This document shows positions 13,490 through 33,645 of a stretch of 64,000 nt of DNA, piece after piece. Where the stretch lies: assembly GCA_030583805.1 (NCBI GenBank), contig CP129476.1, forward strand, positions 309,453-373,452, in the 5' to 3' direction. Position 1 is the first letter of the stretch. Each line of letters starts with the position of its first letter. Below the pieces are notes generated by a model. It was not told the origin of the DNA. It searched no databases and saw only the letters and a program-made list of their open reading frames with translations. Origin of the DNA: Patescibacteria group bacterium (GTDB lineage Bacteria > Patescibacteriota > Patescibacteriia > SG8-24 > DYFX01). The position numbers and the translations under genes are program-made.

Positions 13490-13664
13490 CCAAAGAAATT
13501 AAGTTCAGGTAGACCGGAACCTCCGCCCAAAACTGACGGGGTTCCAATAGACCGGAATGCCTGAAATCGAATGTGAAAGCACTGGAGAGATCCGGTGTTT
13601 TCGTTTTGACGAAGCCTTTCCTGAGGGGTACGGTGATGTCCGAATAATAACCCTAATAAAGTGA

Positions 13665-16600
13665 GTGGTGGCCAAGCCTATTAAGAGGAAAATATACGCG
13701 GCCAATCTGACCACCCTCATGGGGTTTGGCCTATTCGGCATCCTTTCGGCCGAAGCCTACTATGTTGGATCTTCCACGGCCTCCAAGCTTGTGGGTGATT
13801 TCCACAGAGGTGATTACGGATATTGGCTGGCGACCATCTGCACGGGCTACCTGCTGTATGTCGTCGCCTATTTCATCTTGAGAGGCGGTCCGGCTGCTGC
13901 TGCGAAACTGCTTAAGAGCAGGCGCGCGGATGTCGTTGGTGTCTTCGTGGCCGGAGCACTGATGAGTATCTCGTTCGGCGGATTCGGCAGTCCCCTCTAT
14001 CAGAAATTGGCATATACACTCACCGTCTATCAAATACTCACGCTCGCCCTGCTGCCATTTGCGCTGGGACTTTTGATCTTGCTCCGAGCATTGCAGCGTG
14101 GTCCGGATCGAGAGGGCTTGCCGCCGTTTTTCATCAGCGACGTTGAGCAGAAAAACAAGACTGGCGACCTACTTGACCTTGCGGATGAGGCAGATCGGTT
14201 TGCAGAGCGCGTCTGGAACAACGGCTCAATAGAAAGCATGGTGTTCGGCATTGACGCGCCATGGGGCATCGGAAAGTCATCATTCGTAAATTTTTGCAGG
14301 GAGTCATGGGAAGGAAAACACAGAGGACGGGTCATCCTCTATAATTTCAATCCCCTAAGGTATGAAGATCGGGCGAATCTCCTTGAGAAGTTCGTCGACG
14401 GCCTTGTTCGCGTCGTACAAAAACACGCTTTTGTCCCAGAGATTAGGCCACTGGTTTCAAAATATTCTCGCTTCATCAAAAGCGCCAAAGCGTCATTCAG
14501 TTTTTTGGGGGTTGATTTCGAATTGGCACCCGGCACATATACGGTCGATGATGCCTTCGCAGATCTTGAATCAGCCCTGACCGACATCGACAGAAAAATT
14601 GTCATCGTCATCGACGATCTCGACAGGTTGGATTTCTCGGCGATTAAGGACGTCCTCTCTGTGATTAAGAAGAGTTTTAACCTGCCCAATGTTTCCTACG
14701 TCCTCTGCTACGACACTGAGAATATCAATGTGCTGGAAAGGGAACGGCCTGATGTTGAGAAAGTGACGGAGTTCCTTGAGAAATTCGTCAACGTCAAGGT
14801 GGGCCTGTACCTCGACAGCGAGACGCTCGCTAAATACGTCTCCACCAATCTCGCCAGGGCCCTAGTGGGTAACTCTCAGGCCGATCCGAAGCTGGTTTCG
14901 GCGGCGGTTGGTGGTCTCATCGACATCTATAAGTCTCCCGAATTCCACCGCTACCTGCCCTTCATCGGCGATGTTAGAAAAATCAAGAGGTTCATCAATA
15001 CACTCCTGCTTCTTGAAATCGAAAAGGCTGATTTCAAGAATAGTGATTTCGACAAGCAGGACTTGGTTCATCTGCTGTTGATCTATATTAATTATCCGAG
15101 CATCTTCCGGAAGATTTATAACGCCGAGACGAATGGGCGCCGGGGGTTCTTTTCGGTCGCCATGCCCCTCGATGATAACTACCCGAAGGATCCGAGTGCG
15201 GCGCGATCAGGACTAGAAAACACCTACAAAAACTCTACGGATTACGAGGCCTATGTGAAAAAACTTACCGATAACCAGAAATTCCTGCTCGGCAAGATTT
15301 TTGACGTTCCTCTAAGGTTGAAGGACGCGAGAATTGACGGCGTCCCTCAAGAAGCCAAGCATGTGTACGCTTGTTTCAATGGGGGCGTGTTCGGCGGCGG
15401 CCAAAATCTTGAGGCCTACCTCAATTTGATCGTCAAACTTTCCAAGCCCCAAAAGAGTGGCCAGTACAAGTTTTACGCAAATCTCAAGGACGAGATCCGC
15501 GACGGAAAGAAGTCCATCGATGATGTACTGTCAACATCCGATTTTTCGTATGATTGCCCAGAGAGCAACCGCGAACAGCTGTGGAAAGTCATCATCAACA
15601 GCCTGTCGGAATTCAAGAGTGTGGTGGGTAGCAAGCTGATCGTTCACCTGCTAGGGAATATGCAGAACTATTCCCTCTTCACAAATCAGGTGATTGGCGT
15701 CGGTTTGCGAGACGACCTAGATATTTTCCTGACGAGGCTGCTCGATCAGGTGGGTTGGAAGGATCAGAAAGGCGAGCACACCGACAACACCCCAGAAAAC
15801 ATTTCTGAAATTGCCGAATGGGTCTTTGGCGAAGGGCGGCACGCTGGTCAATCGGTTCTTTTGACACTCGCCAAAGAAGACCGCGGCACCCTCGGCCTCT
15901 ATGATCTGCTTTGCTTCCGCCTCTTTTGCAGCGCCGATCGAGGGGGTGATATCTTCAATCTTTCTCGTGCACTCTCAAAGCATGGCGACCCCAACGCACC
16001 GACAGATGGTTCAATAAGGGAGATTGCTATCGGGGAAATGCGTGAAATATCGCAAGCTGTCTTCGGTATTTTCAAGTCTCAATACATCGATCCCGGAAAA
16101 AACATTTTTGATTTAATCGATGGGCTCTCTTTGGCTGATTTTGCCGGAAAATACCAAGCATACATCGAAGGAAAGGTTACATCTGGAGAGATCGAAAATG
16201 CTGAAACTACGGTTGCCGATCTTAAGTCACGCATGAAGTCATTCATCACCTACCAACTGACCAATACCTACATCAGTAGCGGCGTCGGCTGCGGTTACTA
16301 CGACCCGTCAGGCAAAGAGGACGCTGGAGGAATCAGCCACAGCGTCAATGACTACCTTTTCGGTACGTGTTTTAACCCCAGCGTCGCCGGGAAAAATTAT
16401 GAACACTTCTTGGACTACTTGCTCATAAATTTTGCCAGCACCTTTGAATCAAGGGGTGGTCGTGAATACACCCCACATATCAATGAATTCACAAAAATCC
16501 TCGACAAGTCAAAGCTCGCAGAGTACTGGCGCGAACACGCCACCACGATCAGGGGTCTGAACCTAACTGAGAAGGAAAAGACAGTGATCACCTCAAATTA

Positions 16601-16700
16601 TTCTGCTTCGTACAAAGACGATCTGGCGGGCGTGTTTCAGGTGCTGGACAAGCTCATCGAAGAACCTGTAGTCGAGGCACCTGTCGCGCCTAGCGCTTAG
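13665..16700 (+). CDS. KAP family P-loop NTPase with four N-terminal transmembrane helices
   Basis: GTG start. Four hydrophobic helices in the first ~140 aa. FGIDAPWGIGKSSFVNF (KAP Walker A GxWGxGKS) and VIVIDDLDRL (Walker B). Confidence 0.8.
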   Translation: MVAKPIKRKIYAANLTTLMGFGLFGILSAEAYYVGSSTASKLVGDFHRGDYGYWLATICTGYLLYVVAYFILRGGPAAAAKLLKSRRADVVGVFVAGALMSISFGGFGSPLYQKLAYTLTVYQILTLALLPFALGLLILLRALQRGPDREGLPPFFISDVEQKNKTGDLLDLADEADRFAERVWNNGSIESMVFGIDAPWGIGKSSFVNFCRESWEGKHRGRVILYNFNPLRYEDRANLLEKFVDGLVRVVQKHAFVPEIRPLVSKYSRFIKSAKASFSFLGVDFELAPGTYTVDDAFADLESALTDIDRKIVIVIDDLDRLDFSAIKDVLSVIKKSFNLPNVSYVLCYDTENINVLERERPDVEKVTEFLEKFVNVKVGLYLDSETLAKYVSTNLARALVGNSQADPKLVSAAVGGLIDIYKSPEFHRYLPFIGDVRKIKRFINTLLLLEIEKADFKNSDFDKQDLVHLLLIYINYPSIFRKIYNAETNGRRGFFSVAMPLDDNYPKDPSAARSGLENTYKNSTDYEAYVKKLTDNQKFLLGKIFDVPLRLKDARIDGVPQEAKHVYACFNGGVFGGGQNLEAYLNLIVKLSKPQKSGQYKFYANLKDEIRDGKKSIDDVLSTSDFSYDCPESNREQLWKVIINSLSEFKSVVGSKLIVHLLGNMQNYSLFTNQVIGVGLRDDLDIFLTRLLDQVGWKDQKGEHTDNTPENISEIAEWVFGEGRHAGQSVLLTLAKEDRGTLGLYDLLCFRLFCSADRGGDIFNLSRALSKHGDPNAPTDGSIREIAIGEMREISQAVFGIFKSQYIDPGKNIFDLIDGLSLADFAGKYQAYIEGKVTSGEIENAETTVADLKSRMKSFITYQLTNTYISSGVGCGYYDPSGKEDAGGISHSVNDYLFGTCFNPSVAGKNYEHFLDYLLINFASTFESRGGREYTPHINEFTKILDKSKLAEYWREHATTIRGLNLTEKEKTVITSNYSASYKDDLAGVFQVLDKLIEEPVVEAPVAPSA

Positions 16701-17985
16701 CCACACTTAGATGTTGGTCTGCTAGAACAATGCTAGTTTTTACACAGAGGAGAAGCTCACGCTTTTCCTCTTTTGTTCCGTTGATTAGGACGTGGCGGAG
16801 GTACTTCTTGTGATCCAGCCGAGGCATTTTTGTGCTCGCCTCTGCACCGAGCATGGATGCCATGAAACGCTGATTCCGCTCAAGCTCGTCCTGGAATTTC
16901 TTTTTTGAAACCGCGTGGTCGATCTCCAGCTCGTCGAGGATGCCGACGAGCTGTTCAATGAGCACCTCCTCGCGAACGTACGGTTCCTTGCAGTCTTTGT
17001 CGGTGGTCCGCCCACAGTGATAGTAGACGTAGCGCTGGCGCGTGCCGTCGCGTAAGCTCTTGAACTTCTCCTGCGCTGTGACGCCGGAGCCGCACGCGCC
17101 GCACTTCATGAGGCGGGTGAAGGCAAACTCTTTCGACCCCCACTTGGTCTTTTTCTTTTCCATCGCCAGCTGCCTCTGCACGTCGTTGAACAATTCCTCC
17201 GTGACGATGGACTCGTGGGCCACCGGGAACCAGTTTCCGCTTCCGCATGGATACTCGAACCTGCCGTAGTAATAGGGGTTCCGGAGCATGAGGTAAATCA
17301 TGCTTAGCGGCAGTTTCTTGCCCTTCCGCGTTTTGAACCCGACCTCGTCGAGCCATACCTTGATCTTCCTGCCGCTGTGACCGAGGTTCGAGACGCGCTC
17401 GAACATCTCCTTGATGATTGGCGCACGTTCGGGATCGAGGAGAACCTTCTGCTCGCCCTTCATCGTTGTCTTGGTGTTGAAGTACCCGAGCGGCGACTGG
17501 TTCGGCCTCCAGCCCTGCTGCACCTTGGCACGTTGCCCCCGTTTCACGTTGACACCACGGTTGTCATTCTCGAGTTTTGCCTGACTGCACAGGATCATCA
17601 GCAGGAACTTCTCGTTCGGCGAGTTGGTGAAGTGCTGGCTCGGTGTTCGGATCTCGACGAGCTTCCCTTGATCCATGAGGTCGACGAGTGCCCCCAGGTC
17701 GCCGCCGTTGCGGCTGAGTCGGTCCGGTGCCCACGTCAGGATGCCGTTGAATGTCCCGGCGCGCACATCCGTGATCAGGCGGTTGTATTCCGGACGCTGG
17801 TTCGAGTCCTTCGCGGAGTGGCTCTCGCGCCGCGTCGCCACGACCTCCAGCTTCTCACGCTCGGCGAGCTCGAGCATCTCCTTGATCTGCGCGTCGATCG
17901 ACAGCGCCTGCCGCTCGTCCTGCTCGCTCGACTTCCGGGCGTACAGGCAGTACCGAACAGGTACGGCTTCAGTTGGCTTGTTCAT
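16690..17985 (-). CDS. Large serine recombinase (resolvase/invertase N-domain + recombinase domain + zinc ribbon)
   Basis: YCLYARKSSEQDERQALSIDAQ is the catalytic Ser region. CGACGSG in the C-terminal zinc-ribbon region. 431 aa. Confidence 0.85.
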   Translation of the reverse strand: MNKPTEAVPVRYCLYARKSSEQDERQALSIDAQIKEMLELAEREKLEVVATRRESHSAKDSNQRPEYNRLITDVRAGTFNGILTWAPDRLSRNGGDLGALVDLMDQGKLVEIRTPSQHFTNSPNEKFLLMILCSQAKLENDNRGVNVKRGQRAKVQQGWRPNQSPLGYFNTKTTMKGEQKVLLDPERAPIIKEMFERVSNLGHSGRKIKVWLDEVGFKTRKGKKLPLSMIYLMLRNPYYYGRFEYPCGSGNWFPVAHESIVTEELFNDVQRQLAMEKKKTKWGSKEFAFTRLMKCGACGSGVTAQEKFKSLRDGTRQRYVYYHCGRTTDKDCKEPYVREEVLIEQLVGILDELEIDHAVSKKKFQDELERNQRFMASMLGAEASTKMPRLDHKKYLRHVLINGTKEEKRELLLCVKTSIVLADQHLSVAKR

Positions 17986-18064
17986 AGCCCTTATTTGCCC
18001 TTACAGCCCCTTAATAGAAGGCATGTAGGACATCAATGCCGCACCCCGACCGTGAAGGCTAGGC

Positions 18065-18175
18065 TGGCCTTAAAAGCTCTTTAAAGCCATATGACACCGA
18101 CGAATCTCCGAACATCCCTGGCAATCCTGATGACAAGCATGGGGAAGGCATCCGCGAGATAGCTCGGCTATGCGA
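18065..18175 (-). pseudogene. Truncated 3' fragment of a second terminase large-subunit (terL) copy
   Basis: Reverse translation gives ...LADAFPMLVIRIARDVRRFVGVIWL*, matching the C-terminus of the intact TerL (...LADAFSMLVIRVAKDVRRFVGIIWL*). About 80% nt identity to 19360-19470. Confidence 0.7.
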
Positions 18176-18304
18176 ACCATCGAGACGAGGTCGGGATGAC
18201 ATTTTTGTCCCATAACGCACCATCATCGGATATTTGACGAGGATTAATCCACATGTTAGTCTTGCACCGGCTCACAACAACCACCCGAGCCATTGGAGGC
18301 AGAA

Positions 18305-18775
18305 ATGAAGCGCATCGTTCTTTTGACGGCGGTTCTCGCATACGGCGTGTTGACCTCGGGCTGTGTCGTGGATGACGACGGCGAGGACCTAGGGGTCACG
18401 GAGCAGGAGGTTACGGTCAACGACACACTGCCCACATCTGGGAGTAAGACGGTCAGCGTAGCCGTCTATCCTGGTGCACCCTCAGACATTATCATGAGTT
18501 CTCCGTCTTCCGGCAACTGGAAGTTCGAGACGTACGGCAGCCCAATCAGTCTGGGTGGTTGCTCGGCCGGCGACTTCATCGTCTACACCTACTGGCGAGA
18601 CACAAGCGTCAGCTCGACGTGGAACTACTGGCCAGGAGGCGGGCCGGTCTGTTACCCGACATCCGGGTGGTCGACGAACCTGTACAGCGGGAGCAGCACC
18701 ATTCAGTACAAGTTCGAGTACTACGCGTACGGCGGTTATGGCGAAACCGTTTACGCGAAGTTCACGAAGCAATAG
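18305..18775 (+). CDS. Hypothetical lipoprotein (Trp/Tyr/Ser-rich)
   Basis: GGAGG SD 5 nt upstream of the ATG. Signal peptide with lipobox LTSGC. Confidence 0.6.
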   Translation: MKRIVLLTAVLAYGVLTSGCVVDDDGEDLGVTEQEVTVNDTLPTSGSKTVSVAVYPGAPSDIIMSSPSSGNWKFETYGSPISLGGCSAGDFIVYTYWRDTSVSSTWNYWPGGGPVCYPTSGWSTNLYSGSSTIQYKFEYYAYGGYGETVYAKFTKQ

Positions 18776-18816: not shown

Positions 18817-19287
18817 ATGTTTTTAAACCCAAACCATATGTCCATGCCCAAGCGTGTCCGGGAACTACTTTCCACAGCGTCCTTGTTGTTTTTTGTGTGG
18901 CTTTCCGCATTTAGTGGCGATTTCATTGCCGCGCGCACATTCCAAATGAATGATGCCTCCATCCGCAATCCTTGGTGGTCAGTAATCGTAATAGGGTTGC
19001 TCCAACTGATGTTCATGTACGTCGGAGCGCAAGCCATACTGCATATTCTTAAACCCGGCCGCGTCAATAAAAAGCTAGGATTACTTACAGCCCTAATCGC
19101 GTGGCTTTCACTAGAAAAAGTTCTCGCGTTTCCTCGATTGCTTGCGACTCTGCTTCCCAACGGGATTATCGGTACAAACACCGCTCTTTCTACGGTTATC
19201 GTAATTGCAGCACAACTTTCGGTGACGTATCTGCTGGTGTTGATTATCTCGCGCTTGTTGCTTACGGGAGAGGGTGATAGCAAGTGA
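18817..19287 (+). CDS. Hypothetical integral membrane protein (~4 TM)
   Basis: MFLNPNHMSMPKRV... start inside the longer track ORF. Multiple hydrophobic helices. Confidence 0.5.
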   Translation: MFLNPNHMSMPKRVRELLSTASLLFFVWLSAFSGDFIAARTFQMNDASIRNPWWSVIVIGLLQLMFMYVGAQAILHILKPGRVNKKLGLLTALIAWLSLEKVLAFPRLLATLLPNGIIGTNTALSTVIVIAAQLSVTYLLVLIISRLLLTGEGDSK

Positions 19288-19369
19288 CGATTGGGAGCAT
19301 ATAGTTACCGGGAGTAGCTAATGCCTTTCTGCTTGTGACTGTCTGGCTTGTGCCGCCCTTAAAAACCCC

Positions 19370-20860
19370 TTAAAGCCAGATGATACCGACGAATCGCCGA
19401 ACGTCCTTGGCAACCCTGATGACGAGCATCGAAAAGGCGTCCGCAAGATCGTCGTGTCGCTCCGCGCCGAAGCCGACGAGCTGGCGGATCAGGTCATCGC
19501 ATCCGGTCTTCGGAAAGTAGATGTTGCCGAGTTCCATCTCTCGCGCCGCCAGCGTTAGTCGCGCCCGCTTGTCCATGCCCTCTGGACTCACGCCGTAGGT
19601 CGTGAGGTTCGCGTGCTTCATAGTCTCGATCGCCGCGCGTTGAAAGGCGACGTCCTCGACGTAGAAGCGGTGGTACTTCCGATCCGTCATCGTCTTGGTG
19701 AGCTTGGCGGCCTGGATGATCCCTTCGAACGTGAGGTGCTTGTTCGTTACGAACGGCAGGATGTAAACGCGATAGTCCTCACAGAAACCCTGTCGGTCGG
19801 ATTTCTTGTACACGGCAGCGGTGACCATCGCGGTGTAGTCAGCCGACTCGCGCTGTGAAATCGCGAGATCTATACCAGTCGCCACAAACTCGAAGTGCCA
19901 CCCCGGTTCAAGAATGTTCGGCGGCTCGTCCGGAAGGCCCGCGTATCGCTTAATCCATTCCGGCTGCACGACCTGATCTCGGTCGGGCACGATCTCCTGC
20001 ATATACTCCCTGCGAAAGGCCCACTGGTCACCGATCTTTCGCTTGAGATCCTCGATGTGCTCCATCGTCGGGAACTTGGCCGGCCACGCGGGACACCCGT
20101 CTATGACGATCGGGTACTGGCGATAAATGCCGGTCAGTTCCTTTTTCTCAATCTCGTCCTTGAGACGGGCGACAAGCGATTCCTCGTGGAGGAGGTTGCC
20201 GACGATGAAGATGTTGCAGGAGTCGCCGCCCGCCGGGATGACTTCCGATTTCAGCCATCGATATCGCTTCTCACGGATCTCGCTCGAACGAACTGAATCG
20301 AGGTCCTCGACGTCGTCGATAATGATCAGGTCGGGGCGGTTGGAGTGGTTCTTGAGTCCTCGGAGTGAGCTGTCCGCCGAAAGCGCGACAATCCTCGCCT
20401 TGTATCGCGGTAGGACAAGCGAGTTCTCGTTCCAAATATCACCCACGTTGAACGGGCCGTAGTCATTGATGAGGCGGGCGTTCGTTTCCAGCTCAGACTT
20501 TATGTTGTAGAGGATCTGTTTGGCCTGCGGCTCGGTCTTGCTGATGATCAGGATGAACTTCTTGCGTCCCGTCACCGCCGCCCAGATGGGATACGAAAGC
20601 GAGGCGATCGTGGACTTGCCCGAGTTCCTGAAGGCGACCACGACACGGAGCGGGTCTGCACATGACTCCGTCAGCCGGAAGATCTCTTTATGAAAGAGGG
20701 CGAACGGCACCGTCATGTGCTCGCCGAGATACGTCATGAAGAACCACAGATGACTTTCCGTGGTGAGACCGATCCGAAAGGCGCGCTCCTTCTCGATACG
20801 CGAGAAGGTTTCCTCAAGAGATCCGTTTTGAGGTTGAATTCTTTCCTGCATCGCCGTCAT
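19370..20860 (-). CDS. terL: Phage terminase large subunit (TerL; ATPase + RNaseH-like nuclease)
   Basis: AFRNSGKST (Walker A), LIIIDDVED (Walker B), ATGIDLAISQRESADYTAMV in the nuclease domain. Start taken at MTAMQERIQ, overlapping the terS 3' end. Confidence 0.85.
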   Translation of the reverse strand: MTAMQERIQPQNGSLEETFSRIEKERAFRIGLTTESHLWFFMTYLGEHMTVPFALFHKEIFRLTESCADPLRVVVAFRNSGKSTIASLSYPIWAAVTGRKKFILIISKTEPQAKQILYNIKSELETNARLINDYGPFNVGDIWNENSLVLPRYKARIVALSADSSLRGLKNHSNRPDLIIIDDVEDLDSVRSSEIREKRYRWLKSEVIPAGGDSCNIFIVGNLLHEESLVARLKDEIEKKELTGIYRQYPIVIDGCPAWPAKFPTMEHIEDLKRKIGDQWAFRREYMQEIVPDRDQVVQPEWIKRYAGLPDEPPNILEPGWHFEFVATGIDLAISQRESADYTAMVTAAVYKKSDRQGFCEDYRVYILPFVTNKHLTFEGIIQAAKLTKTMTDRKYHRFYVEDVAFQRAAIETMKHANLTTYGVSPEGMDKRARLTLAAREMELGNIYFPKTGCDDLIRQLVGFGAERHDDLADAFSMLVIRVAKDVRRFVGIIWL

Positions 20861-21317
20861 TTTTCGGTTTCGAGTTGGCCTCTGTCTCTGCCAGCCCAGT
20901 TTCGCCGCCGGCCGCCTCCGCGAGAAGCGCAACGGATTGTCGGATGATCTCTTTCTGTGTATCCGAGATCTCGACGGGCTCCTGCTGTTGCGGCGCGAGG
21001 AGTTCGACTTTTGTCGCGTATGCGCGGTGGTGGTGCTTGAGCCAGAAGATCACGGCCGTGAGGTTTCCTTCCCTAATGGCAGTCATGAGCTGTGACTCAG
21101 CCATGTCGTTCACAAGACCCGCGCCGGTCTCAACGGCCTCGTCGACGGCGGCGGCGAACGCCGCGTCATCCTTCCGCCAGCGGTAAAATGTTGCGCGGCC
21201 GATCCCGACCTTTTGGCAGGCTCCTTGAACGATCGGCCGCTTGCGTAGCTCTTCGACCAGAACCTCTTTCTGCTTTTCCTGCCGTATGGTGACGGCGTCC
21301 TTCTTCTCAGTCCCCAT
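20814..21317 (-). CDS. terS: Phage terminase small subunit (TerS, HTH + FWLK motif)
   Basis: HTH CQKVGIGRATFYRWRK and NLTAVIFWLKHHHRAY, resembling Terminase_2-family small subunits. Sits immediately upstream of terL. Confidence 0.65.
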   Translation of the reverse strand: MGTEKKDAVTIRQEKQKEVLVEELRKRPIVQGACQKVGIGRATFYRWRKDDAAFAAAVDEAVETGAGLVNDMAESQLMTAIREGNLTAVIFWLKHHHRAYATKVELLAPQQQEPVEISDTQKEIIRQSVALLAEAAGGETGLAETEANSKPKNDGDAGKNSTSKRIS

Positions 21318-23765: not shown

Positions 23766-23881
23766 CTGTCTAGACCCAACCCGAACAGGGCAAGTTTTGC
23801 CTATTTCCGGATCGCGCGCATAGAGCGGCATCCGGATAAAACAATCCTCGCACGATCCGTGCTTGGGTTGGGTCTAGACAC
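23766..23881. promoter_or_regulatory. Inverted-repeat-rich control region between divergent genes
   Basis: gtctagacccaacccgaaca (23766-23786) and its complement cttgggttgggtctagac (23860-23879), about 75 bp apart. Internal palindromic tccgga sites. GGGTGTCGCT direct repeat at 23578 and 23886. Confidence 0.5.
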
Positions 23882-23940
23882 CTCCGGGTGTCGCTTTGTT
23901 TTTATAGGCATCCGGCGGGCTTACACGTCATCTGTAGCCC

Positions 23941-25666: not shown

Positions 25667-27994
25667 ATGTTTCCACTCAAGCCATTCCAAGAGCAGGCGG
25701 TCGCAAAGCTGAAGAACGAGTTTCTTTCTCTTTGGAAGTCGCCTCACCATAATGTACCGCTCGTCTTCAAGTCGCCAACGGGTTCCGGCAAGACGATCAT
25801 GCTCGCGCAGTTCCTGCGCGACATCGTGAGCGATCCGCGCTTTCAAGGCAACGATGTGGCGTTTCTGTGGTTCTCGTTCAGCGAGGACTCCTACGTCCAA
25901 AGCAAGGAGAAGCTGTTCGCGTACTACGGCGGCGCTTCAGAGCTGGACCTGCTCGATCTGAACGACCTCACCCGAGGCAGGCTTCAGAAAAATAACGTCT
26001 TCTTCATCAACTGGCAGAAGATCAAGGGTAAGTCGAAGGACAGCCGAAAACTACGGCGCGAGAACGAATGGGGCCTGACATTTGATAACGTCATCAATAA
26101 GACCCACGAGGACGGACGCAAGCTCGTGGTCATTATCGACGAGGAACACGTCGGGGCGGATACGGACCTTGCGCTTGAGGTCATCGACGGCCTCATCCGT
26201 CCGAAGGTCACCATACGTGTCTCGGCGACGCCCAAGTACATTCCAAATGCGGAAGAGATCGCCGATGGGAAGGGCGGCTTCGTCAACGTAAAACGGGACG
26301 AGGTGGTTCTGGCCGGACTCATCAAGGAAAAAATTATCTTCCAGACGGAAGAAGACCTCAACAAGAAGGAGTTCAAGAGCGCCGACCAGGACGAGATTCT
26401 TCTTGAGCTTGCTTATCGCAAGCGACTCGATCTGATCCGCTGGTACAAGGAGATTGGCATCGATATCAACCCACTCGTCCTCGTCCAGCTCCCGAACGAT
26501 GATCAAGAATCGAAGACGAATGTCGCAACGAAACGCGGCATCGTTTCCGACTACCTCAAGCGGAAAGGTGTTTCGGAAAGCGAGATAGGCGTTTGGCTTT
26601 CGAATGAAAAGGTGAACCTTGAGAACATCGAGGCGAACGAGTCGCCTGTCTCTTTCCTTTTATTCAAGCAGGCGGCCGCGACCGGCTGGGACTGCCCGAG
26701 AGCGGGAGTGCTCGTCATGTTCCGCGAGATCAAGAACCCGACGTTCGCCATCCAAACGGTCGGCCGCATTTTGCGCATGCCGTTGGGTTCCCATTTTCCG
26801 CGTCCCGAACTCAACGTCGGCTATCTGTACACCAACTATAAAAGGAACGAGGTACTGGCCGAATATGCGAAATCGAAGTCCGACAACCGGCCGGCGATCA
26901 ACGGGAGCTATCGTAAAGCAGACGTGAAGTCGATCACGCTCGATTCGGTCTTCATGAGCCGTACGGACTACAACGACCTAGGCGACACCTTCCAGGCGAT
27001 ATTTGGGACGGCAGCCGATGGTCATTTCGGTATCAGCGACAAAGACGGCAAGCAGACTGCTCTCGATAAGCTCGCCAAGAAAGGCTTCGATACGTCGCCG
27101 AAGGTCACGAACGGCCTCATCGTCGGCGTCGAGATCGACGACTATGACAACTTCATCCAGGAGCTTGTCGCCGAGGGTGCGAGCCACGATCAGGAGATGT
27201 CGGAATACGACCTTGAACGCCTCTACAACCTCCTCTGCTTCAAGCTGATCGCCAAACAGACCGATGAACAAAAGAAGTTCGCGCCCGAGCGCTCTTGGGG
27301 AAAGCTCAAGACGGCGCTCAACGTCTGGATGATCGGACGTACGAGGGAATTCCGCCGGGCTGCCTACAGAATGATCGTCAATGACCTCCTGAACCCCGCA
27401 AGCGTCCTCGCACCGCTCATCGGCTCCTCGTTGGCGCTATATCGCCCTCTTCGAGAGCAAGAAGTGAACAGGCGTTCCGAGCGGTCGAAACGCACAGAGA
27501 CGATTGATCTCCCCCGCGAGGCACTGTTCTTCACTGATCAGTACACGGAGATGAAGGTGAAGAAATGCGCGATGTCGCCCTTCTACATCGAGAAGGACTA
27601 TCAAGGGGAGGATAATGAAAAGGGGTTCATTGCCTTCCTTGAGAGCCATAAGAATGTCCTCTGGTGGCACAAGAACGGTGATATCGGGAGCGAGCATTTT
27701 TCGATCTCGTACTACAACCCGGACGAAAACAAGGAGAGGCTCTTTTATCCCGACTGGATCGTGAAGACGCCTGCCGCCGTCTGGATCATTGACACCAAGC
27801 AGGGAGCGACGGCCGAGCTCGCCGACACCAAGCATAAGGCAGAGGCGCTACAGGCCTGGTTAAAGAGCAGGAAAGGCTTTGCTGGAGGCATAGCCGTTCA
27901 AGACGGCCCGAACGGGTGGAAACTGAACAGGAACTCTAAATACTCCTATGCGCCCTCGTTCACAGGATGGGAAGCCTTTAATGATTTGCTGTGA
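25667..27994 (+). CDS. res: Type III restriction enzyme Res subunit (SF2 helicase + endonuclease)
   Basis: FKSPTGSGKT (Walker A) and VVIIDEEHV (DEEH box). Immediately downstream of mod. Confidence 0.9.
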   Translation: MFPLKPFQEQAVAKLKNEFLSLWKSPHHNVPLVFKSPTGSGKTIMLAQFLRDIVSDPRFQGNDVAFLWFSFSEDSYVQSKEKLFAYYGGASELDLLDLNDLTRGRLQKNNVFFINWQKIKGKSKDSRKLRRENEWGLTFDNVINKTHEDGRKLVVIIDEEHVGADTDLALEVIDGLIRPKVTIRVSATPKYIPNAEEIADGKGGFVNVKRDEVVLAGLIKEKIIFQTEEDLNKKEFKSADQDEILLELAYRKRLDLIRWYKEIGIDINPLVLVQLPNDDQESKTNVATKRGIVSDYLKRKGVSESEIGVWLSNEKVNLENIEANESPVSFLLFKQAAATGWDCPRAGVLVMFREIKNPTFAIQTVGRILRMPLGSHFPRPELNVGYLYTNYKRNEVLAEYAKSKSDNRPAINGSYRKADVKSITLDSVFMSRTDYNDLGDTFQAIFGTAADGHFGISDKDGKQTALDKLAKKGFDTSPKVTNGLIVGVEIDDYDNFIQELVAEGASHDQEMSEYDLERLYNLLCFKLIAKQTDEQKKFAPERSWGKLKTALNVWMIGRTREFRRAAYRMIVNDLLNPASVLAPLIGSSLALYRPLREQEVNRRSERSKRTETIDLPREALFFTDQYTEMKVKKCAMSPFYIEKDYQGEDNEKGFIAFLESHKNVLWWHKNGDIGSEHFSISYYNPDENKERLFYPDWIVKTPAAVWIIDTKQGATAELADTKHKAEALQAWLKSRKGFAGGIAVQDGPNGWKLNRNSKYSYAPSFTGWEAFNDLL

Positions 27995-28461
27995 ACAAGA
28001 GTCGTCACCTTGAGGTACTAATAGAATCCGTGAGAGATAAGTGTGACTTCCTAGCTGAGGCGAACAACACGTTAGATGGGAAAGCTGCGACATTAATGGG
28101 CTTTGAGATCACCCTCGGCATAGGCTACGCGTCATTGGTACTTGGAAATGTGGGTGGTACTAATCATGACGAGGGTGTCGCTGGGTTATTCATGTTGGGC
28201 ATGTCTGTAGCTTCTCTGCTGTACGTGAACTGGCCCCGAGATTACACGACGACCTGCGTCGATCTTTTCGAACACACAGAATACCTGGAGAAGGGGACGG
28301 GAGATTTGTTGCTCCAATTAACGAGTGATGCACAGAACGCCTTCTCTCAAAACAACCAAAAATTGAAAACCAAGGCCAGGTTCTATAAAGCTGCGATCGT
28401 CCTGCTTCTCGTCGCTACATTCTTGTTCCTGATGTCAAAATCACCAAACTTCTATGTCTGA
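27991..28461 (+). CDS. Hypothetical small membrane protein (3 TM), translationally coupled to res
   Basis: ATGA-type overlap with the res stop. Hydrophobic segments ITLGIGYASLVLGNVGG, VAGLFMLGMSVASLLYV and AAIVLLLVATFLFLM. Confidence 0.55.
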   Translation: MNKSRHLEVLIESVRDKCDFLAEANNTLDGKAATLMGFEITLGIGYASLVLGNVGGTNHDEGVAGLFMLGMSVASLLYVNWPRDYTTTCVDLFEHTEYLEKGTGDLLLQLTSDAQNAFSQNNQKLKTKARFYKAAIVLLLVATFLFLMSKSPNFYV

Positions 28462-28644
28462 TACTCGACAACCCCAACCTCAACCCAAGCCGATCGAGCT
28501 TCCGAAACCGAATCAGGGAGAGACTGTGACAAAGGGTGGCTAGAGCCCACAACACGAATCTCAACCCCATTTCCAGACCATGTGTAAATATGCGTGAGTT
28601 TCTGGTGTGGTCGAACCAGCGAAGAATTATAGCATCGGCCGTCC

Positions 28645-30009
28645 TCATACGTGTGCACATTGTAGTACCGCCACAAACAGACTCTCTACCTCATTCTCGA
28701 TTTCATTAGGCCCAACTCTATAAGACGACGATAAGGGATCCGAAATCACAATATAACCCGTCGGGGCGAAGGCACTAGTTGGCAACATAAAAAACTTCTC
28801 GACCTGCTCAGCGCCGGTGGTATCCACCGCCACTGCCAGTACTCTGTCGAACCAGCGCTGATGCTCCTTGATCAAAAAACACCATCGCCCGATATTGTCT
28901 GGCCCTACGGTACGAGCGGCATAAAGTACGGGAATCATCCGGGCAAAACGGATTGCCTCGGCGGAATCCAAGCCCTTCCGCACTAAGTATGAACGCAGTT
29001 CCTTGAGAACAGATTTGCGCGCCTTCCGAATAGCTCTCTCGCCAGCTTTGCATCTGGATGGGAGAATCCAATAAAGCCTTTCTTGGGCGAGCTCGAAGGT
29101 CTGCTTGTCGATAATTGCTGGAATGGCGTTTTCTGTTTTGATCCATTCGCTACGCGGATTCTTCCGATGTCCCTTCTTCAGCTTATTCCAAGTTTTGTTA
29201 TATACGAGTGTGCCGGTATAGACCTCGTTCATCAGTATTCGAATGATCTTAGTTTTGTTCCATGTCCCGCCATTGGGCGAACGGACTTCCGATGCATTGA
29301 GCATCCCAACGATGCGATCCAAGCCCAGCCGTCTCGTCACGAAATACTGAAAAATATCCTGTACGGTCTGGGTTGTTCCATCATCAGCAGGAACGAATAC
29401 GACACGTTCATTCGCTATGCACTTGTGCTCGCCTTTTCTCAAAACCCGCACCGGCTTCTTATCGATGTCTAGAAGAAATCTGGCCAATCCGAAGCAGGCA
29501 ATGCCACCGTTTGAATAACCCTGCTGTGATGTTCTTATACATCCCTTGGAGACCTTGTCACTAAGCTCGGCGCTGTACTGGCCCGCCATGATTCGATGGA
29601 AAGGATTTTCCATCTGCGCCATCGGTGACTCGTCCGGCTTCGGAAGACCACGAGAGAGGTAGACGACAGGCCTCCCGTGTTTTTTGCAGAGAAACTGATA
29701 ATGAGCTGACTCATCCTGATCTTGAAAGCGCCCCCACCGGGACACGTCGAGGACCAATACAAAGTCGAAGACGGGTGCCTCTGGATTCAAAACCCACTCG
29801 TCAAACAACCTTTGGAATCCAGGTCGCCCGGCTGTGAGGCCACTTTTACCCTCATCGACTTCCTCATGAATGATGTCGATGCTGTGCCGATCGGCGAATC
29901 GCTGTACCTGTTCTCGTTGAATTGGGACCGAATTCTCCTGTTTATCCTCCGCTGAATGACGATAATACGCAACGGCCTTTTTCCTAGTGACGCCTCCAAA
30001 CAAGCTCAT
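28645..30009 (-). CDS. Large serine recombinase (second copy, distinct sequence)
   Basis: AVAYYRHSAEDKQENSVPIQ is the catalytic Ser region. Recombinase domain with a Cys-containing C-terminus. 454 aa. Confidence 0.85.
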   Translation of the reverse strand: MSLFGGVTRKKAVAYYRHSAEDKQENSVPIQREQVQRFADRHSIDIIHEEVDEGKSGLTAGRPGFQRLFDEWVLNPEAPVFDFVLVLDVSRWGRFQDQDESAHYQFLCKKHGRPVVYLSRGLPKPDESPMAQMENPFHRIMAGQYSAELSDKVSKGCIRTSQQGYSNGGIACFGLARFLLDIDKKPVRVLRKGEHKCIANERVVFVPADDGTTQTVQDIFQYFVTRRLGLDRIVGMLNASEVRSPNGGTWNKTKIIRILMNEVYTGTLVYNKTWNKLKKGHRKNPRSEWIKTENAIPAIIDKQTFELAQERLYWILPSRCKAGERAIRKARKSVLKELRSYLVRKGLDSAEAIRFARMIPVLYAARTVGPDNIGRWCFLIKEHQRWFDRVLAVAVDTTGAEQVEKFFMLPTSAFAPTGYIVISDPLSSSYRVGPNEIENEVESLFVAVLQCAHV

Positions 30010-30022
30010 AAGACCGCCTCGC

Positions 30023-30889
30023 TTAAATCAACTCGATCAGTAACTTTTTCAGCTGTTGAAGCATCGGCTTCTCGTCAGTCGAGAACTCAACTGCATTTTT
30101 CTTTTTACCCGCAATTGCTTGGATCAATTCATCGATCAAGAGTGAAAAACCTGATTGCTGAGATCGTTCTTCTAGTTCCTGAATGGTCATGTCCGGGTCG
30201 GTTAGGAACGCGTAGAGTGCGTCTTCGTTCACGGCCGCACGGATGAAGATGCGTTTTAGTGTTCTGATGTCTTGGGCATTGGTAATCACGTCGTAACTGA
30301 TTTTCTCGAAAATGGTGCGGATAATGGCATCGACTTCCAGGTTTTTAATCTTCCGAATCTTGGGTTTCATTTTCAAGAATTCCACCCGATAACTTTCTTT
30401 CAGCTGATAGCGTTCCATCATGGCGATGTGCTCGACATTTTGATCCCGCATTTTTAGAACATAGGTTACTGTGGAGTGTGACAGGTGCAGTGCATCAGCC
30501 AGTTCGACCGTCGATTTATAGCCCATCGCTGATTTGATTTTAACGAAGGCGTTGGAGCGTTCGGCAGGCGTCCACTGGCGCTTGTTGTTTTGAATCTCAA
30601 ATCGTCTCAGCTCGAACTCCCCCGGATCCATTTTCGGATATACTCGGCAAGGAACGGCCGTGAGGCCGATTTCCTTGGCACACTCAAAACGACGGTGGCC
30701 GTCGAGAATCAGGTAACGGTCCTTGTCGATCTCGCTCACGGCCAGGGGCATCTCAATACCCATATCCTTAATTGAGACGAGTAGGCGGTTGTGTTCGCCC
30801 TTTACTCCGAATTCTTTACGAGGTTGGTCGGGATCCATCGCTATCTGGGCAACAGCTATCTCACGAAACACGGGTTTGTATTTTTCCAT
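30023..30889 (-). CDS. ParB-like protein (ParB N-terminal nuclease-like domain + HTH)
   Basis: LILDGHRRFECAKEIG is the ParB box. HTH LADALHLSHSTVTYVL. ATG at 30887-30889; the track ORF begins at an upstream TTG. Confidence 0.75.
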   Translation of the reverse strand: MEKYKPVFREIAVAQIAMDPDQPRKEFGVKGEHNRLLVSIKDMGIEMPLAVSEIDKDRYLILDGHRRFECAKEIGLTAVPCRVYPKMDPGEFELRRFEIQNNKRQWTPAERSNAFVKIKSAMGYKSTVELADALHLSHSTVTYVLKMRDQNVEHIAMMERYQLKESYRVEFLKMKPKIRKIKNLEVDAIIRTIFEKISYDVITNAQDIRTLKRIFIRAAVNEDALYAFLTDPDMTIQELEERSQQSGFSLLIDELIQAIAGKKKNAVEFSTDEKPMLQQLKKLLIELI

Positions 30890-31099
30890 ACAGGACAAAG
30901 AGCAAACGAGTTGTACCCGTTTTTACCCTTTTTTATGTTTTACGCTCGGAGTGATTATTTTCACTCCCGAATGGGAGGAAGTTAACGAAGTGGGTGTTTT
31001 TTGTCAAGAAAATATAGGAGTGTTCGTGACATTGACGCATGGGGCCTGTCAGCGTACAGTTGAGTTATATTTGTACGCATTATAAGCTTACGTAAGACT

Positions 31100-31450
31100 A
31101 TGAGTAATAATCAGACCCTTGGGCAGCGCATCAGGGAGCTGAGAGACGAGAAAGACCTCTCCCTAAGAGACTTTGCGGTGAAGCTCAAGCTTTCTCCCGC
31201 CTTCGTCTCTGACGTAGAATTAGGTAGGCGCTACCCCAGCGAGGACGTCATTGCAAAGATGGCATCGGTGCTGGGTGTAAAATTGAAAGACCTCGAGGCA
31301 TACGACCCCAAGCCAGTCGTTGAAGAAATAAAAAGACGCACCCTTCAGATTGATCCTGAGCTCGGTATTTTAATGCGCGGCAATCTAAAGAGCGATGCGG
31401 ATTACGAGGAGTTGAAGAAATTTTTGAGAACGAAAGACAGCAAGAAGTAA
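31100..31450 (+). CDS. XRE-family HTH transcriptional regulator
   Basis: LGQRIRELRDEKDLSLRDFAVKLKLSPAFVSDVELGRR is an HTH_3 motif. Confidence 0.85.
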   Translation: MSNNQTLGQRIRELRDEKDLSLRDFAVKLKLSPAFVSDVELGRRYPSEDVIAKMASVLGVKLKDLEAYDPKPVVEEIKRRTLQIDPELGILMRGNLKSDADYEELKKFLRTKDSKK

Positions 31451-31454
31451 CACG

Positions 31455-32177
31455 ATGCTGCTATTCCCCACCGAAAGCTCGCCGTTCACGGAACGGACCG
31501 TCTATAAGCCGGCCGAGTTGGAATTGATGGCCATGGATGAGCTTCGGAAAGCTGGACTGCTCCCGCGCACCCCTGAACCGATCCGCATCGAGGCCTACGT
31601 TACCAAGAGGTATAATCTGACACCGGACTACAGCGCACCCCTACCCGATGGGGTTCTTGGCCTTACACGCTTTGGTGCCAAAGGACCGACTGACATTCTC
31701 GTCTCGAAAACACTGGGAGACGATCTCTCGGACGTTGGAAGGCGGAGAACCAATGCGACACTGGCTCACGAAGCTGGTCACTGCCTCCTTCACGGTCCTC
31801 TTTTCGCAGTGAGCGGTCGGGTCGGTGGTGGGATCTTGGAAAGAGGCGGTGACAGTCACGGAGCCGATGCAGGTATTGATACTTCTGATCCCAGCATCCT
31901 TTGTCGTGAGATCGGCACTGACGTGCCCACCTACAACTGGGTGGAGTCGCAGGCCAATGCCATGATCGGTCCACTCCTGATGCCGCAACCTCTCGTCGCG
32001 TCGTTGCTCAAAATCGAGTTCGGCATGAGCTTGCCTACCCCGAAGACCGGCGTCATCTCCCTAAGCAAGGACGATGCGGCCACCATCGTCAGGAAGCTGT
32101 CGGAAATTTTCGATGTGAATCCGGCCGTGGCGCGCCTTCGCATCGAAAAGATGGGGTTCAACATCCCCCGGACTTGA
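31455..32177 (+). CDS. ImmA/IrrE family metallo-endopeptidase
   Basis: HEAGHCLLH (HEXXH). Directly downstream of the XRE regulator, in the ImmR/ImmA arrangement. Confidence 0.8.
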   Translation: MLLFPTESSPFTERTVYKPAELELMAMDELRKAGLLPRTPEPIRIEAYVTKRYNLTPDYSAPLPDGVLGLTRFGAKGPTDILVSKTLGDDLSDVGRRRTNATLAHEAGHCLLHGPLFAVSGRVGGGILERGGDSHGADAGIDTSDPSILCREIGTDVPTYNWVESQANAMIGPLLMPQPLVASLLKIEFGMSLPTPKTGVISLSKDDAATIVRKLSEIFDVNPAVARLRIEKMGFNIPRT

Positions 32178-32592
32178 CACGGATATTTTTTTACTTGCGC
32201 TGTCTTCAAAATAAGCGTACATTGTACGAGATGGTTCCCGTCGGAAACGGAAACGACGGCCTTGAAGGGCCGCCGTTCCCGGCGCCGATGCGGGGTCGGT
32301 ACAGGGCATCTCGGGAGAGAAGCTGGTCGAACTGTACCACGGAAGCGGCCGCCGCCTCCACCCCGCCAAGCCCGGGATCTATTCACCGAAGACTGCGTAT
32401 GGCCCAAAAACCTGCGTCCAAGACGGTGCATCGGAGCTCGGAGTCTGGAAAGTTCGTGACGGAACGGTACGCCGACCGCCACCCCCGGACCACTGAGACC
32501 GAGCGCATCAAGAGGACGGGTCGCAAGTGACCGAACCTGCGCGGGACGGCCGGTGTAAGGGCCGCCGTCCCGCCAAGGTGCGGCACGCGAAA

Positions 32593-32901
32593 ATGGGCCA
32601 CAGCAGGACTCAAAATATGGATCTACTCGGCTATACATTCCAAGGTCCGTACTCCATCGACGGCAAGTTCAATGACGTCCCCGGGATCTACCTCATCCTC
32701 ACGACGGCGCGGAATAAGGTCGTGGACGTCGGACAGACCGACAAGCTCGGTCAGCGCATTCCGAACCACGACCGTAAGCCAGACTGGCGTCAGTGCGGCA
32801 GCTGCGAGTTGTGGTTCCATCATGAAGCCAACGAACAGACTCGGCTGACGAAGGAATCCCGGCTCCGCGCGACCTACGATCCGCTTTGCGGAGAAAGGTA
32901 G
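32593..32901 (+). CDS. GIY-YIG nuclease domain protein (small)
   Basis: PGIYLILTTARNKVVDVGQTDKLGQRIPNH matches the GIY-(~10)-YVGQT-L-R-H pattern. Start ambiguous between MGHS at 32593 and MDLL at 32617. Confidence 0.55.
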   Translation: MGHSRTQNMDLLGYTFQGPYSIDGKFNDVPGIYLILTTARNKVVDVGQTDKLGQRIPNHDRKPDWRQCGSCELWFHHEANEQTRLTKESRLRATYDPLCGER

Positions 32902-33018
32902 ATCGACGCGGTTCGGCGACTAGGAAATACCGGGAGGGCGCATTCGGGCGCCCTCCCGGTCAAGTCCGACTCGCCGTATTTCATCCGTCTTTAAGAAAAT
33001 CTTCTATGTAATAATCCT

Positions 33019-33417
33019 ATGGACCCCAATACCCCTACACTCATGTTCCCGCCGGACTTCTGGCAAAAGGCTATAACAGACGGAACCGCTCAGGCGGCTA
33101 CCATCCTGCGCCCCATTTTCACACAGGCCGCGCTAGCGATCTGGCATCATGCACCGGCCATCATCGCCGTCGTATCCCTACTACTCGTCATCGCTCTATT
33201 CAAAGCCGCTTTCGGCTATTGGGGCATGCTGGGTAGCCTGTTGTACCACATCTTCTACTTCAGTATCTTCGGAGTAATCCTCTGGGTGCGAGGCCCCGAA
33301 CTGCTGTTCAGTGATTATTACGAGCTCATCGGCCTTATTCTGAACCCGATCTGTTACTGGCTGACCGGGCTTATACTCCAGAGGTTCCGACTTAGACGGA
33401 CGCATGCGTTCATCTAA
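33019..33417 (+). CDS. Hypothetical membrane protein (3 TM)
   Basis: Hydrophobic helices. Last ORF before the island-boundary terminator. Confidence 0.5.
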   Translation: MDPNTPTLMFPPDFWQKAITDGTAQAATILRPIFTQAALAIWHHAPAIIAVVSLLLVIALFKAAFGYWGMLGSLLYHIFYFSIFGVILWVRGPELLFSDYYELIGLILNPICYWLTGLILQRFRLRRTHAFI

Positions 33418-33579
33418 GACCGGGTGTTTGGCGACTCTTGAGACACTTCGCAGCTAGCCCATTTCAGTCCCAAGGTGTCTCAATTAGCCTTGACCGGAAC
33501 GTCTCCTGAGAATCGCTGAAGGACTGTCTCAAAAAGTCCTAACACATACGGGTCCTGACAGGTACGTCGAGCCATGAAA

Positions 33580-33607
33580 AAACGCCCGTCGTCCGGGCGT
33601 TTTTTCT
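33580..33607. terminator. Bidirectional rho-independent terminator
   Basis: aaaaaacgcccgtcgtccgggcgttttttc is a GC hairpin flanked by an A-run and a T-run. Confidence 0.7.
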
Positions 33608-33645
33608 TACGTGGATATTTTTTCCAGCAGTGTTACACTGCATAC

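Follow-up and report, generated by a model that had tools for sequence, protein, structure and literature searches.

A lower-GC island at tRNA-Gln in a Patescibacteria genome, a candidate satellite-like element with a large serine recombinase and phage packaging genes

We analyzed a 64,000-nt stretch of a Patescibacteria group bacterium genome (GenBank assembly GCA_030583805.1, contig CP129476.1, positions 309,453 to 373,452), referred to here as the window, and focused on a lower-GC interval that begins at the 3' end of a tRNA-Gln(CTG) gene. We somewhat favor reading positions 13493–33574 of the window as one 20.1-kb integrative mobile island in a Patescibacteria (candidate phyla radiation, CPR) genome. 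Its core is a well-supported, conserved, and co-oriented module consisting of orf269, a ParB-like domain fused to a methyltransferase (ParB-MTase), the terminase subunits (TerS and TerL), and a large serine recombinase (LSR#1). A second large serine recombinase (LSR#2) and several defense genes lie in the same interval. For the island as a whole, the explanation that we prefer, with some reserve, is a helper-dependent, satellite-like integrative element. The structure of this element is well supported, and there is moderate to low support for the inferred mechanism of its transfer. The family to which it belongs is apparently large and undescribed.

Borders of the island at tRNA-Gln(CTG)

The GC content was 0.527 across 13493–33574 (20,082 bp) vs 0.604 in each flank. 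The tetranucleotide distance from the flank average was about twofold across 13–33 kb and dropped back past ~33.5 kb. These values bear out an earlier note, made from the sequence alone, which had described a GC drop just past tRNA-Gln with recovery only after a bidirectional terminator at ~33.6 kb and had proposed k-mer composition as a check. The terminator is a symmetric bidirectional intrinsic terminator at 33576–33605 with a 13-bp stem (−20.4 kcal/mol, z −4.5). The tRNA-Gln(CTG) gene (13419–13492, + strand, called by ARAGORN; Rfam tRNA match at 13419–13489, 62.9 bits) remains intact beside the island, and an Rfam scan of the island returned nothing besides this tRNA.

The left border reads ...CGAGCCA followed by AAG, and the right border reads ...CGAGCCA followed by TG and then the terminator. 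Relatives of the site were found by a genome scan with the left-flank pseudouridine synthase, at 70–80% protein identity. In island-free relatives the tRNA end reads CGAGCCATG and then the terminator follows; in four relatives (L004, L005, L006, and L010; related loci carry L numbers throughout) the tRNA reads ...CCCCGAGCCATG(C/T) and runs into the terminator. Because island-free relatives have a terminator directly past the tRNA, the one at 33576–33605 is probably the original tRNA-Gln terminator, pushed away by the insertion. The predicted empty attachment (att) site, attB, is tRNA-Gln ...CGAGCCA joined to TGAAAAAACGCCCG, and the predicted circular attP joins position 33574 to 13493.

Other, smaller content occupies the same tRNA-Gln in relatives. 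L010 has 2.5 kb of other DNA (7400–9870, with a zeta-toxin-like kinase, a ParB/HTH_ParB protein, and a cupredoxin) between tRNA-Gln and the homologue of the DEAD-box helicase encoded at 34565–36037 of the window, and in L005 ~7 kb separate tRNA-Gln from this right-flank helicase gene. This makes the locus a hotspot for integration with variable content, into which the 20 kb were inserted. The earlier note had called the interval an acquired, defense-carrying mosaic at the tRNA-Gln 3' end and not an intact prophage, and relatives without it at the same site agree with that description. It had also named the finding that would have made the interval ancestral core DNA, namely relatives with the same gene order, uniform composition, and no empty site, and L010 and L005 differ from this.

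The recombinase-packaging module and its attachment arms

We called genes from Pfam, PADLOC, and PHROGs, and the island open reading frames (ORFs) scanned were those of about 116 aa and longer. The module is encoded on the − strand. Its first gene, orf269 (22711–23520), is fast-evolving and conserved in position, and in eight other loci proteins weakly similar to it are encoded immediately upstream of ParB-MTase. ParB-MTase (21307–22638) is an orphan methyltransferase with a ParB-like N-terminal domain fused to an N6/N4 methyltransferase (N6_N4_Mtase E 1e-22; phrog_498 E 2e-70), and its residues 8–141 match phrog_620 (ParB-like). TerS (20814–21317) matched phrog_309 (E 2.5e-10) and other PHROG terS families, as well as Pfam HTH_Tnp_1_2. 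TerL (19370–20851, in an ORF called to 20932), the packaging ATPase and nuclease, matched phrog_38 (E 1e-72) and Terminase_6C. LSR#1 (16690–17985), the presumed integrase, has the three domains Resolvase (PF00239, E 7e-22), Recombinase (PF07508, E 1.7e-14), and Zn_ribbon_recom (PF13408, E 1.6e-8) with a YARKSSEQ serine motif, and at least 8000 database clusters matched it at E ≤ 1e-30. No capsid, portal, tail, lysis, or tyrosine-integrase family was matched among the island ORFs scanned, which upholds the earlier view that terS and terL occur here without capsid, portal, or tail genes. The portal, capsid, tail, and lysis genes that an intact prophage would hold within one att-bounded unit were thus not found.

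This arrangement recurs widely. LSR#1, used to scan viral contigs, matched 13 loci at 46–56% identity, to which 80 further metagenome loci were added. Nearly all of the 13 have ParB-MTase, terS, terL, a gap of 0.1–6 kb, and LSR#1 on a single strand, and the same order and strand are shared by viral, metagenomic, and metagenome-assembled genome loci, mostly from Patescibacteria. At least one of the three genes ParB-MTase, terS, and terL was present in 33 of the 43 LSR#1 loci with ≥6 kb upstream. When 1031 ORFs from ~100 loci were clustered, the widely shared genes were LSR#1 (93 loci), ParB-MTase (44), terS (38), and terL (37), followed by HsdM (16 loci), RVT_1 (8 loci), Type III Mod, and HsdR; no structural-protein cluster appeared among these ORFs. 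ParB-MTase reaches 84% identity among relatives. The earlier note had listed terS and terL within a mix of at least two elements. They are no leftover of a prophage that is unconnected to the recombinases, but belong with orf269, ParB-MTase, and LSR#1 to one co-oriented module seen in dozens of loci.

The closest relatives of LSR#1 (L105/L273 and L274) use tRNA-Gln(CTG) in different host contexts. In L105/L273 (LSR 86% identical), DruA, an AAA_13 protein, an MmeI-like enzyme, and a PLD-SNF2 protein precede a 269-aa homologue of orf269, which is followed by the four other module genes and the end at tRNA-Gln(CTG). L274 (LSR 72%) lies at tRNA-Gln(CTG) adjoining dnaX. In L103 (LSR 76%), an opposite-strand Type III restriction-modification (R-M) system and a 224-aa ORF are followed by ParB-MTase, terS, terL, and LSR, and then by SLATT/SMODS, tRNA-Asn, and host rpoD/dnaG. 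A separate observation concerns L104 (SRR24881069_68191, 5917–11240), from the same metagenome, where a second LSR#1-family gene (59% identity) has no terminase module and adjoins a Gabija-like pair of a UvrD helicase and an OLD-type AAA_15/TOPRIM protein.

The packaging genes point to a tailed-phage source. True phage contigs hold TerL relatives at 37–40% identity, and there terL is directly followed by genes for a portal protein (fused to a head-morphogenesis domain), a protease, and the major head protein. The island module is derived from such a tailed-phage packaging module, with the integrase and attachment site in place of the portal and capsid genes after terL. Among GenBank phages the best TerL identity was just 24–32%. 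The TerL single-protein scan of viral contigs gave 25% relatives only, and the ParB-MTase single-protein scan gave 3 loci only. The Walker A (FRxSGKST) and Walker B (DLIIxDDVED) motifs of TerL and its C-terminal acidic nuclease motif DDLAD are kept across 32 members at 31–68% identity, so that TerL is, on this sequence evidence, under selection.

Serine-integrase att sites are normally short imperfect inverted repeats (~40–50 bp) that share only a 2-bp core. The LSR#1 family has a different layout, and it is tied to tRNA genes. In 21 of 83 loci, a tRNA on the opposite strand, with its 3' end toward the recombinase, lies ≤300 nt from the LSR#1 stop, compared with none on the same strand, and an opposite-strand tRNA is present within 5 kb in 20 of the 33 loci that have 5 kb downstream. 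The targets include tRNAs for Ser, Glu, Lys, Gln, Asn, Leu, Asp, and Trp. Spacing from the LSR stop to the tRNA falls into classes of 161–162 nt and 178–180 nt, with many relatives at 110–230 nt.

On the tRNA side of the island, the terminal segment (the putative P' arm, 13493–13664, +) contains two direct repeats of GTTC-N5-GACC around a small hairpin, at 13503–13515 and 13541–13553 (38 nt apart). The looser motif GTT[CG]-N5-6-[GA]ACC begins 4–20 nt past the tRNA end in 24 of 43 LSR#1-family loci vs 0 of 43 on the control side. L005 and L274 share the layout of two repeats plus hairpin with the window, and L105 is 85% identical to the window over 13418–13527. The window-type P' motif matched viral contigs five times, all at unrelated places without an LSR or a tRNA.

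The last 7 nt of tRNA-Gln, CGAGCCA (13486–13492), recur at the far end of the island, where the putative far-end arm (P arm, 33550–33574, +), GGGTCCTGACAGGTACGTCGAGCCA, consists of a pseudo-T-arm and these 7 nt, followed by TG. The pattern in the family is a T-arm look-alike, (G/A)GTTCC(A/T)GACC, with the last 6–7 nt of the target tRNA 8–10 nt later. This layout stands at far ends or tandem junctions in 6 other loci (L005, L190, L148, L152, L189, and L089), and beyond it comes either a terminator (L152, L189) or the arm of another element, as at tandem junctions (L005, L148, L190). Searched for in 29 loci, the pattern had 5 matches on the tRNA-sense strand and 0 on the opposite strand. We place attR at 33550–33574 since the right end of the window has this family layout; with attL at the tRNA end, it would bound the whole island with both recombinases inside. 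A long direct repeat of the tRNA 3' end, allowing up to 7 mismatches in 25 nt, was absent from the window. As a side observation, a 1-kb insert in L005 is followed, at 7037–7140, by a pseudo-tRNA arm that abuts the arm of an LSR#1-type element, and no recombinase lies close by.

The earlier note had expected short inverted repeats flanking each recombinase gene, with att sites sought also at 17.99–18.30 and 28.46–28.64 kb. Neither of these two intervals holds a tRNA-end copy or an arm motif, and the arms found, a tRNA-side arm at 13486–13553 and the far arm at 33550–33574, enclose both recombinases. One candidate at 18284–18292, CCCGAGCCA followed by T, is a 9–10-nt match to the tRNA-Gln 3' end plus the first flank base of the empty site. 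No arm motif flanks it, and it overlaps the ribosome-binding site of the lipoprotein-like ORF that follows. We therefore regard it as probably due to chance; it may be either chance or a degraded old junction.

Four family members have both ends defined (L152, 5.8 kb; L148, 6.9 kb; L189, 9.4 kb; L089, 12.1 kb), and none carries virion genes. L189 has the full packaging module and L089 has ParB-MTase, terS, an 880-aa methylase, and a HepT-like gene, and the cargo of L152 (3928–9711) comprises DsbB, a pyridine-nucleotide disulfide oxidoreductase, and an FAD-linked oxidase. Tandem LSR#1-type arrays occur in L148, L173, and L175, and in L100/L101 on one contig. The complete L189 element also has two LSR#1-family paralogues (1125–2450 and 7602–8969), one by each end.

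Cargo genes and the second recombinase

The cargo is variable and occupies three slots: one separates LSR#1 from the tRNA, another separates terL from LSR#1, and the third lies upstream of orf269. In relatives the cargo includes Type I, IIG, and III R-M, OLD/Gabija-like, SMODS-SLATT, and DruA genes. In the island, the first slot, which runs from the stop codon of LSR#1 to the terminal segment, holds a KAP-family P-loop NTPase (13665–16700, +; KAP_NTPase PF07693, E 9e-41). It is PifA-like (PADLOC PifA, E 4e-29, a match that spans only part of the profile) and is a candidate abortive-infection defense gene, with a GC content at third codon positions (GC3) of 0.60 vs about 0.80 in the host. The terL–LSR#1 slot, which ranges from 0.1 to 6 kb among relatives, has two + strand ORFs read from the sequence, one small and secreted or lipoprotein-like (18305–18775) and one membrane ORF (18817–19287); both lacked family matches and have a GC3 of 0.51–0.52.

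Upstream of orf269 lies a Type III R-M system, with mod (23941–25662, +; PADLOC MTase_III E 9e-89, Pfam N6_N4_Mtase) and res (25667–27994, +; PADLOC REase_III E 6e-15, Pfam ResIII) adjacent, co-oriented, and 4 nt apart, followed by a small ORF (27991–28461, +). Homologous mod/res pairs are cargo also in L136, L139, L147, and L168. The 420-nt spacer between orf269 and mod (23521–23940) contains a 24-nt inverted repeat (23767–23790/23857–23880, 88% complementary) and, at 23689–23704, a 16-nt near-match to 13553–13568 of the terminal segment (BLAST E 0.53). This spacer could be a regulatory or recombination site. Beside the element in L274, positions 1–9400 of that locus carry copper ATPase, HMA, and RND efflux genes, which may be part of its cargo.

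The second recombinase, LSR#2 (28645–30009, −; Resolvase PF00239 E 8.6e-15, Recombinase PF07508 E 5.5e-24), is unrelated to LSR#1, as the earlier note had proposed (22% identity over 187 aa, E 0.17). No zinc ribbon was matched in LSR#2 or in the precomputed domains of its homologues. Both recombinases have a 100% identical counterpart in one Patescibacteria metagenome-assembled genome, where the two are encoded on a single 1.17-Mb contig. It is paired with a ParB_N protein (30023–30898, −; Pfam), and next to the pair are an XRE repressor-like gene (31100–31450, +; Pfam HTH_3 E 7.5e-13), a candidate ImmA-like metallopeptidase (31455–32177, +), and three small + strand ORFs (32174–32530, 32527–32901, and 33019–33417). 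Family matches were found for all of the ParB-N/MTase fusion, Type III R-M, KAP NTPase, ParB-like, and XRE assignments made earlier from the letters. The proposed XRE/ImmA/GIY-YIG module stood in part: XRE was matched and ImmA fits (HEAGH motif, weak capP match), but the GIY-YIG match of 32527–32901 was sub-threshold (E 0.067, 13.9 bits).

The ParB_N/LSR#2 pair is conserved in L107, L108, L109, L191, and L194. Over window positions 28665–31010, L108 is 79% identical in nucleotides, and outside this segment, to the left and to the right, the two diverge. The pair stands at the head of a ~6.5-kb insert that separates mnmE from secA in L191, and in L194 (Chryseobacterium) it occurs with an XRE-M78 fusion. 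In the window, L107, and L109 it adjoins an LSR#1 module, in arrangements that differ. None of the 93 loci recovered with LSR#1 has the pair within 10 kb, and an LSR#2 single-protein scan of viral contigs returned nothing. GC3 is host-like in the LSR#1 module (0.69–0.80) and lower, at 0.51–0.60, in cargo genes and the LSR#2 module. This second recombinase module has another origin than the LSR#1 module and is either a nested mobile element or captured cargo. At L109 5885–7307, a diversity-generating-retroelement-like set (two RVT_1 fragments and bAvd) lies between the LSR#1 and ParB_N/LSR#2 modules.

A 98-nt segment between LSR#1 and terL (18063–18160, −) is a remnant of a second, related terL 3' end. 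It is 83% identical to 19352–19449 (find-repeats family D1) and keeps the reading frame and the stop, ending ...LADAFPMLVIRIARDVRRFVGVIWL vs ...LADAFSMLVIRVAKDVRRFVGIIWL in the intact gene, with conservative changes. These features trace the remnant to a related but distinct element. In L090, L095, L097, L103, and L105, terL ends ~100 nt before the LSR. The remnant suggests that two related elements contributed to the present island, either through tandem integration followed by deletion or through illegitimate recombination.

Elsewhere in the window, 45069–48461 (−) encodes a 1130-aa protein with a C-terminal Peptidase_S74 (endosialidase/tail-fiber chaperone) domain, which could be a phage-derived fiber or surface adhesin; the tetranucleotide distance is raised at 46–48 kb.

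Proposed transfer, rival explanations, and known systems

In the mechanism that we propose, LSR#1 would insert the island at the tRNA-Gln(CTG) 3' end, its family recognizing the tRNA end through an inferred chemistry. The GTTC-N5-GACC arm would land beside the tRNA and the pseudo-tRNA arm on the far side, by the displaced terminator, and the tRNA would stay intact. LSR#1 with a directionality factor would later excise the unit, and the element's own TerS and TerL would then load the excised DNA into helper-phage capsids, as phage satellites do. The orphan ParB-methyltransferase might pre-methylate the DNA against restriction in the next host. Like satellites, the island has an integrase and att sites without a complete virion gene set, and the presence of TerS/TerL with kept TerL motifs is consistent with genes directing their own DNA into helper capsids. 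The sole lead to a helper is the occurrence of the 37–40% TerL relatives in true phages.

Several results weigh against this reading. At the attachment sites, the CGAGCCA 7-mer is as frequent in the window as chance predicts (13 copies vs 13.4 expected), the 10-nt arm motif is not enriched overall in family loci (3 exact copies vs ~8 expected), and the right-end att call is a resemblance over 25 nt. A pseudo-tRNA arm with direct repeats is also unusual for serine integrases. The predicted attP junction, searched as an exact pattern, had 0 matches in viral contigs, and the far end was not found in L274 within 10 kb or in the available DNA of L273. No empty site in the same strain was seen, with the three contigs from an exact-protein look-up of two flank genes matching the window at 100%. 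As for the module, about a quarter of the LSR#1 loci lack the terminase genes, which makes the module dispensable for the integrase's own life cycle, and a fold comparison gave no recognizable fold for orf269. No family match to a replication module (primase/replicase, origin) was found in the island or the conserved core, where unassigned ORFs could hide one. Neither a helper phage nor a capsid-remodeling gene was identified, and neither an excised circle nor enrichment in virus particles was seen.

The main alternative, which we regard as possible but distinctly less probable, is an accreted array. An LSR#2-type element (ParB-like/LSR#2 and XRE/ImmA, perhaps also the Type III R-M genes) would have integrated separately from one or two LSR#1-type elements, all of them at or near tRNA-Gln, each moving or having moved alone, and the far-right arm would belong to the oldest arrival. 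The gap in GC3 between the LSR#2, ParB-like, and XRE genes (0.55–0.60) and the LSR#1 module (0.69–0.80) fits this account, as do the stand-alone LSR#2-type pairs of L191 and L194, the 93 LSR#1-found loci with no LSR#2 within 10 kb, the known LSR#1-type tandem arrays (L148, L173, L175, L100/L101), and the terL remnant as the trace of a second related element. Against it, no att-like junction was found between the modules; the spacers 28462–28644 and 23521–23940 are without a tRNA-end copy, and the only LSR#1-type far arm lies past the LSR#2 module. The adjacency of the modules in three independent loci (the window, L107, and L109) suggests association over chance, but L107 was picked via both proteins.

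Two further accounts concern the terminase genes. It is very unlikely that the island is the remains of one or two decayed temperate prophages, with terS and terL as relics without a current role. The module is phage-derived (PHROG matches, and ParB-MTase upstream of terS/terL as in phages, L085), IMG/VR lists many of the loci as viral contigs, and the terL 3' remnant is a sign of decay. Yet the module recurs in at least 33 loci at 31–84% protein identity with TerL motifs intact, which implies purifying selection. The ~100 loci share no structural cluster, the complete two-ended elements of 9.4 and 12.1 kb lack structural genes, and independent decay would not halt at the same gene set repeatedly. 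Unlikely too is a terminase that works in place, either by headful packaging of the lateral-transduction type from the integrated element, with adjacent cargo and host DNA carried into particles encoded elsewhere, or as a nuclease defense with its own methyltransferase. The orientation of terS, terL, LSR, and tRNA would aim packaging at the tRNA-side cargo and host DNA, and in most loci the module sits among R-M and other defense genes. Lateral transduction by prophages and phage-inducible chromosomal islands (PICIs) mobilizes defense genes next to attB (PMC12829572), which also counts in favor. Against this, no particle genes are known in the genome, as far as the 64-kb window goes, and the pairing of MTase and terminase is typical of ordinary phages.

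If the satellite-like reading is correct, the family would be a concrete vehicle for gene flow and for the turnover of restriction and abortive-infection genes in streamlined Patescibacteria genomes. Patescibacteria make up a large share of bacterial diversity, gene movement among them is poorly known, and to our knowledge they have no known conjugation machinery. We offer, tentatively and as a doubtful extension, the idea that Patescibacteria may exchange defense and accessory genes mainly via phylum-wide satellite-like elements, in which a serine recombinase would read the T-arm and acceptor end of the tRNA by way of a pseudo-tRNA attP arm, and which would package themselves by TerS/TerL into helper capsids. 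A terminase-only, capsid-less layout would widen the range of phage-satellite designs, and many 'viral contigs' in public catalogues may be such elements and not viruses. Genome engineering makes wide use of serine integrases, and a clade directed at conserved tRNA ends via a pseudo-tRNA arm would be mechanistically unusual and could give new, predictable landing-site specificities.

Satellite-like integrative islands that sit at a tRNA and carry cargo are a known kind of element. A search of the full-text literature gave no description that combines Patescibacteria, a serine recombinase, and a terminase, nor one of large serine integrases that target tRNAs and have a pseudo-tRNA arm, and returned only general papers on satellites, tycheposons, and CPR phages. 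Classical PICIs carry terS or redirecting factors, and capsid-forming PICIs (cf-PICIs) also carry capsid genes. The island resembles both as a 10–20 kb site-specific element without a full virion set, with phage-derived packaging genes, accessory/defense cargo, and an XRE-type regulator region. It differs in its integrase, a large serine recombinase where PICIs have a tyrosine recombinase, in having TerS and TerL without capsid, portal, or connector genes, in its Patescibacteria host, and in having no identified primase/replicase module or helper phage.

The likeness to the tycheposons of Prochlorococcus extends to the streamlined genome, the tRNA 3'-end target, the tandem stacking, and the seeding of variable islands next to a tRNA. 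Integration at tRNA 3' ends with partial tRNA copies at the borders, by which tycheposons are recognized, is what we found for the LSR#1 family. Satellite-like and cargo forms exist in both, here with redox enzymes in L152 and defense genes in L089 and the window. Tyrosine recombinases serve 474 of 501 tycheposons, and the satellite-like ones carry a major capsid protein and terS with a primase or helicase (bioRxiv 10.1101/2020.12.28.424599). In contrast, the island has serine-type recombinases and no tyrosine recombinase of the tycheposon clade, and it has TerS, TerL, and ParB-MTase with no replication gene identified.

Among serine systems, the integrases of phiC31-, Bxb1-, A118-, and SPbeta-type phages target protein-coding genes or intergenic DNA. 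LSR#1 shares their three-domain architecture and the position of the gene adjoining the attachment site, whereas its family uses tRNA 3' ends, a pseudo-tRNA arm, and direct-repeat motifs, in an element without virion genes. The staphylococcal cassette chromosome mec (SCCmec), moved by Ccr recombinases, is a serine-recombinase cargo island at the 3' end of a conserved gene that is spared, and it is prone to tandem and composite forms. Our island is likewise a large-serine-recombinase cargo island at the 3' end of an undestroyed housekeeping gene; SCCmec differs in targeting rlmH and not a tRNA, in its staphylococcal hosts, and in lacking phage packaging genes, and the sequence kinship is at the superfamily level only. 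Set against these systems, the island appears new in four respects: a serine in place of a tyrosine integrase, TerS and TerL without capsid genes, an unusual att architecture, and a wide distribution across the phylum. If the doubtful extension given above holds true, the family would be a serine-recombinase counterpart of tycheposons and PICIs with a new class of tRNA-specific serine integrases.

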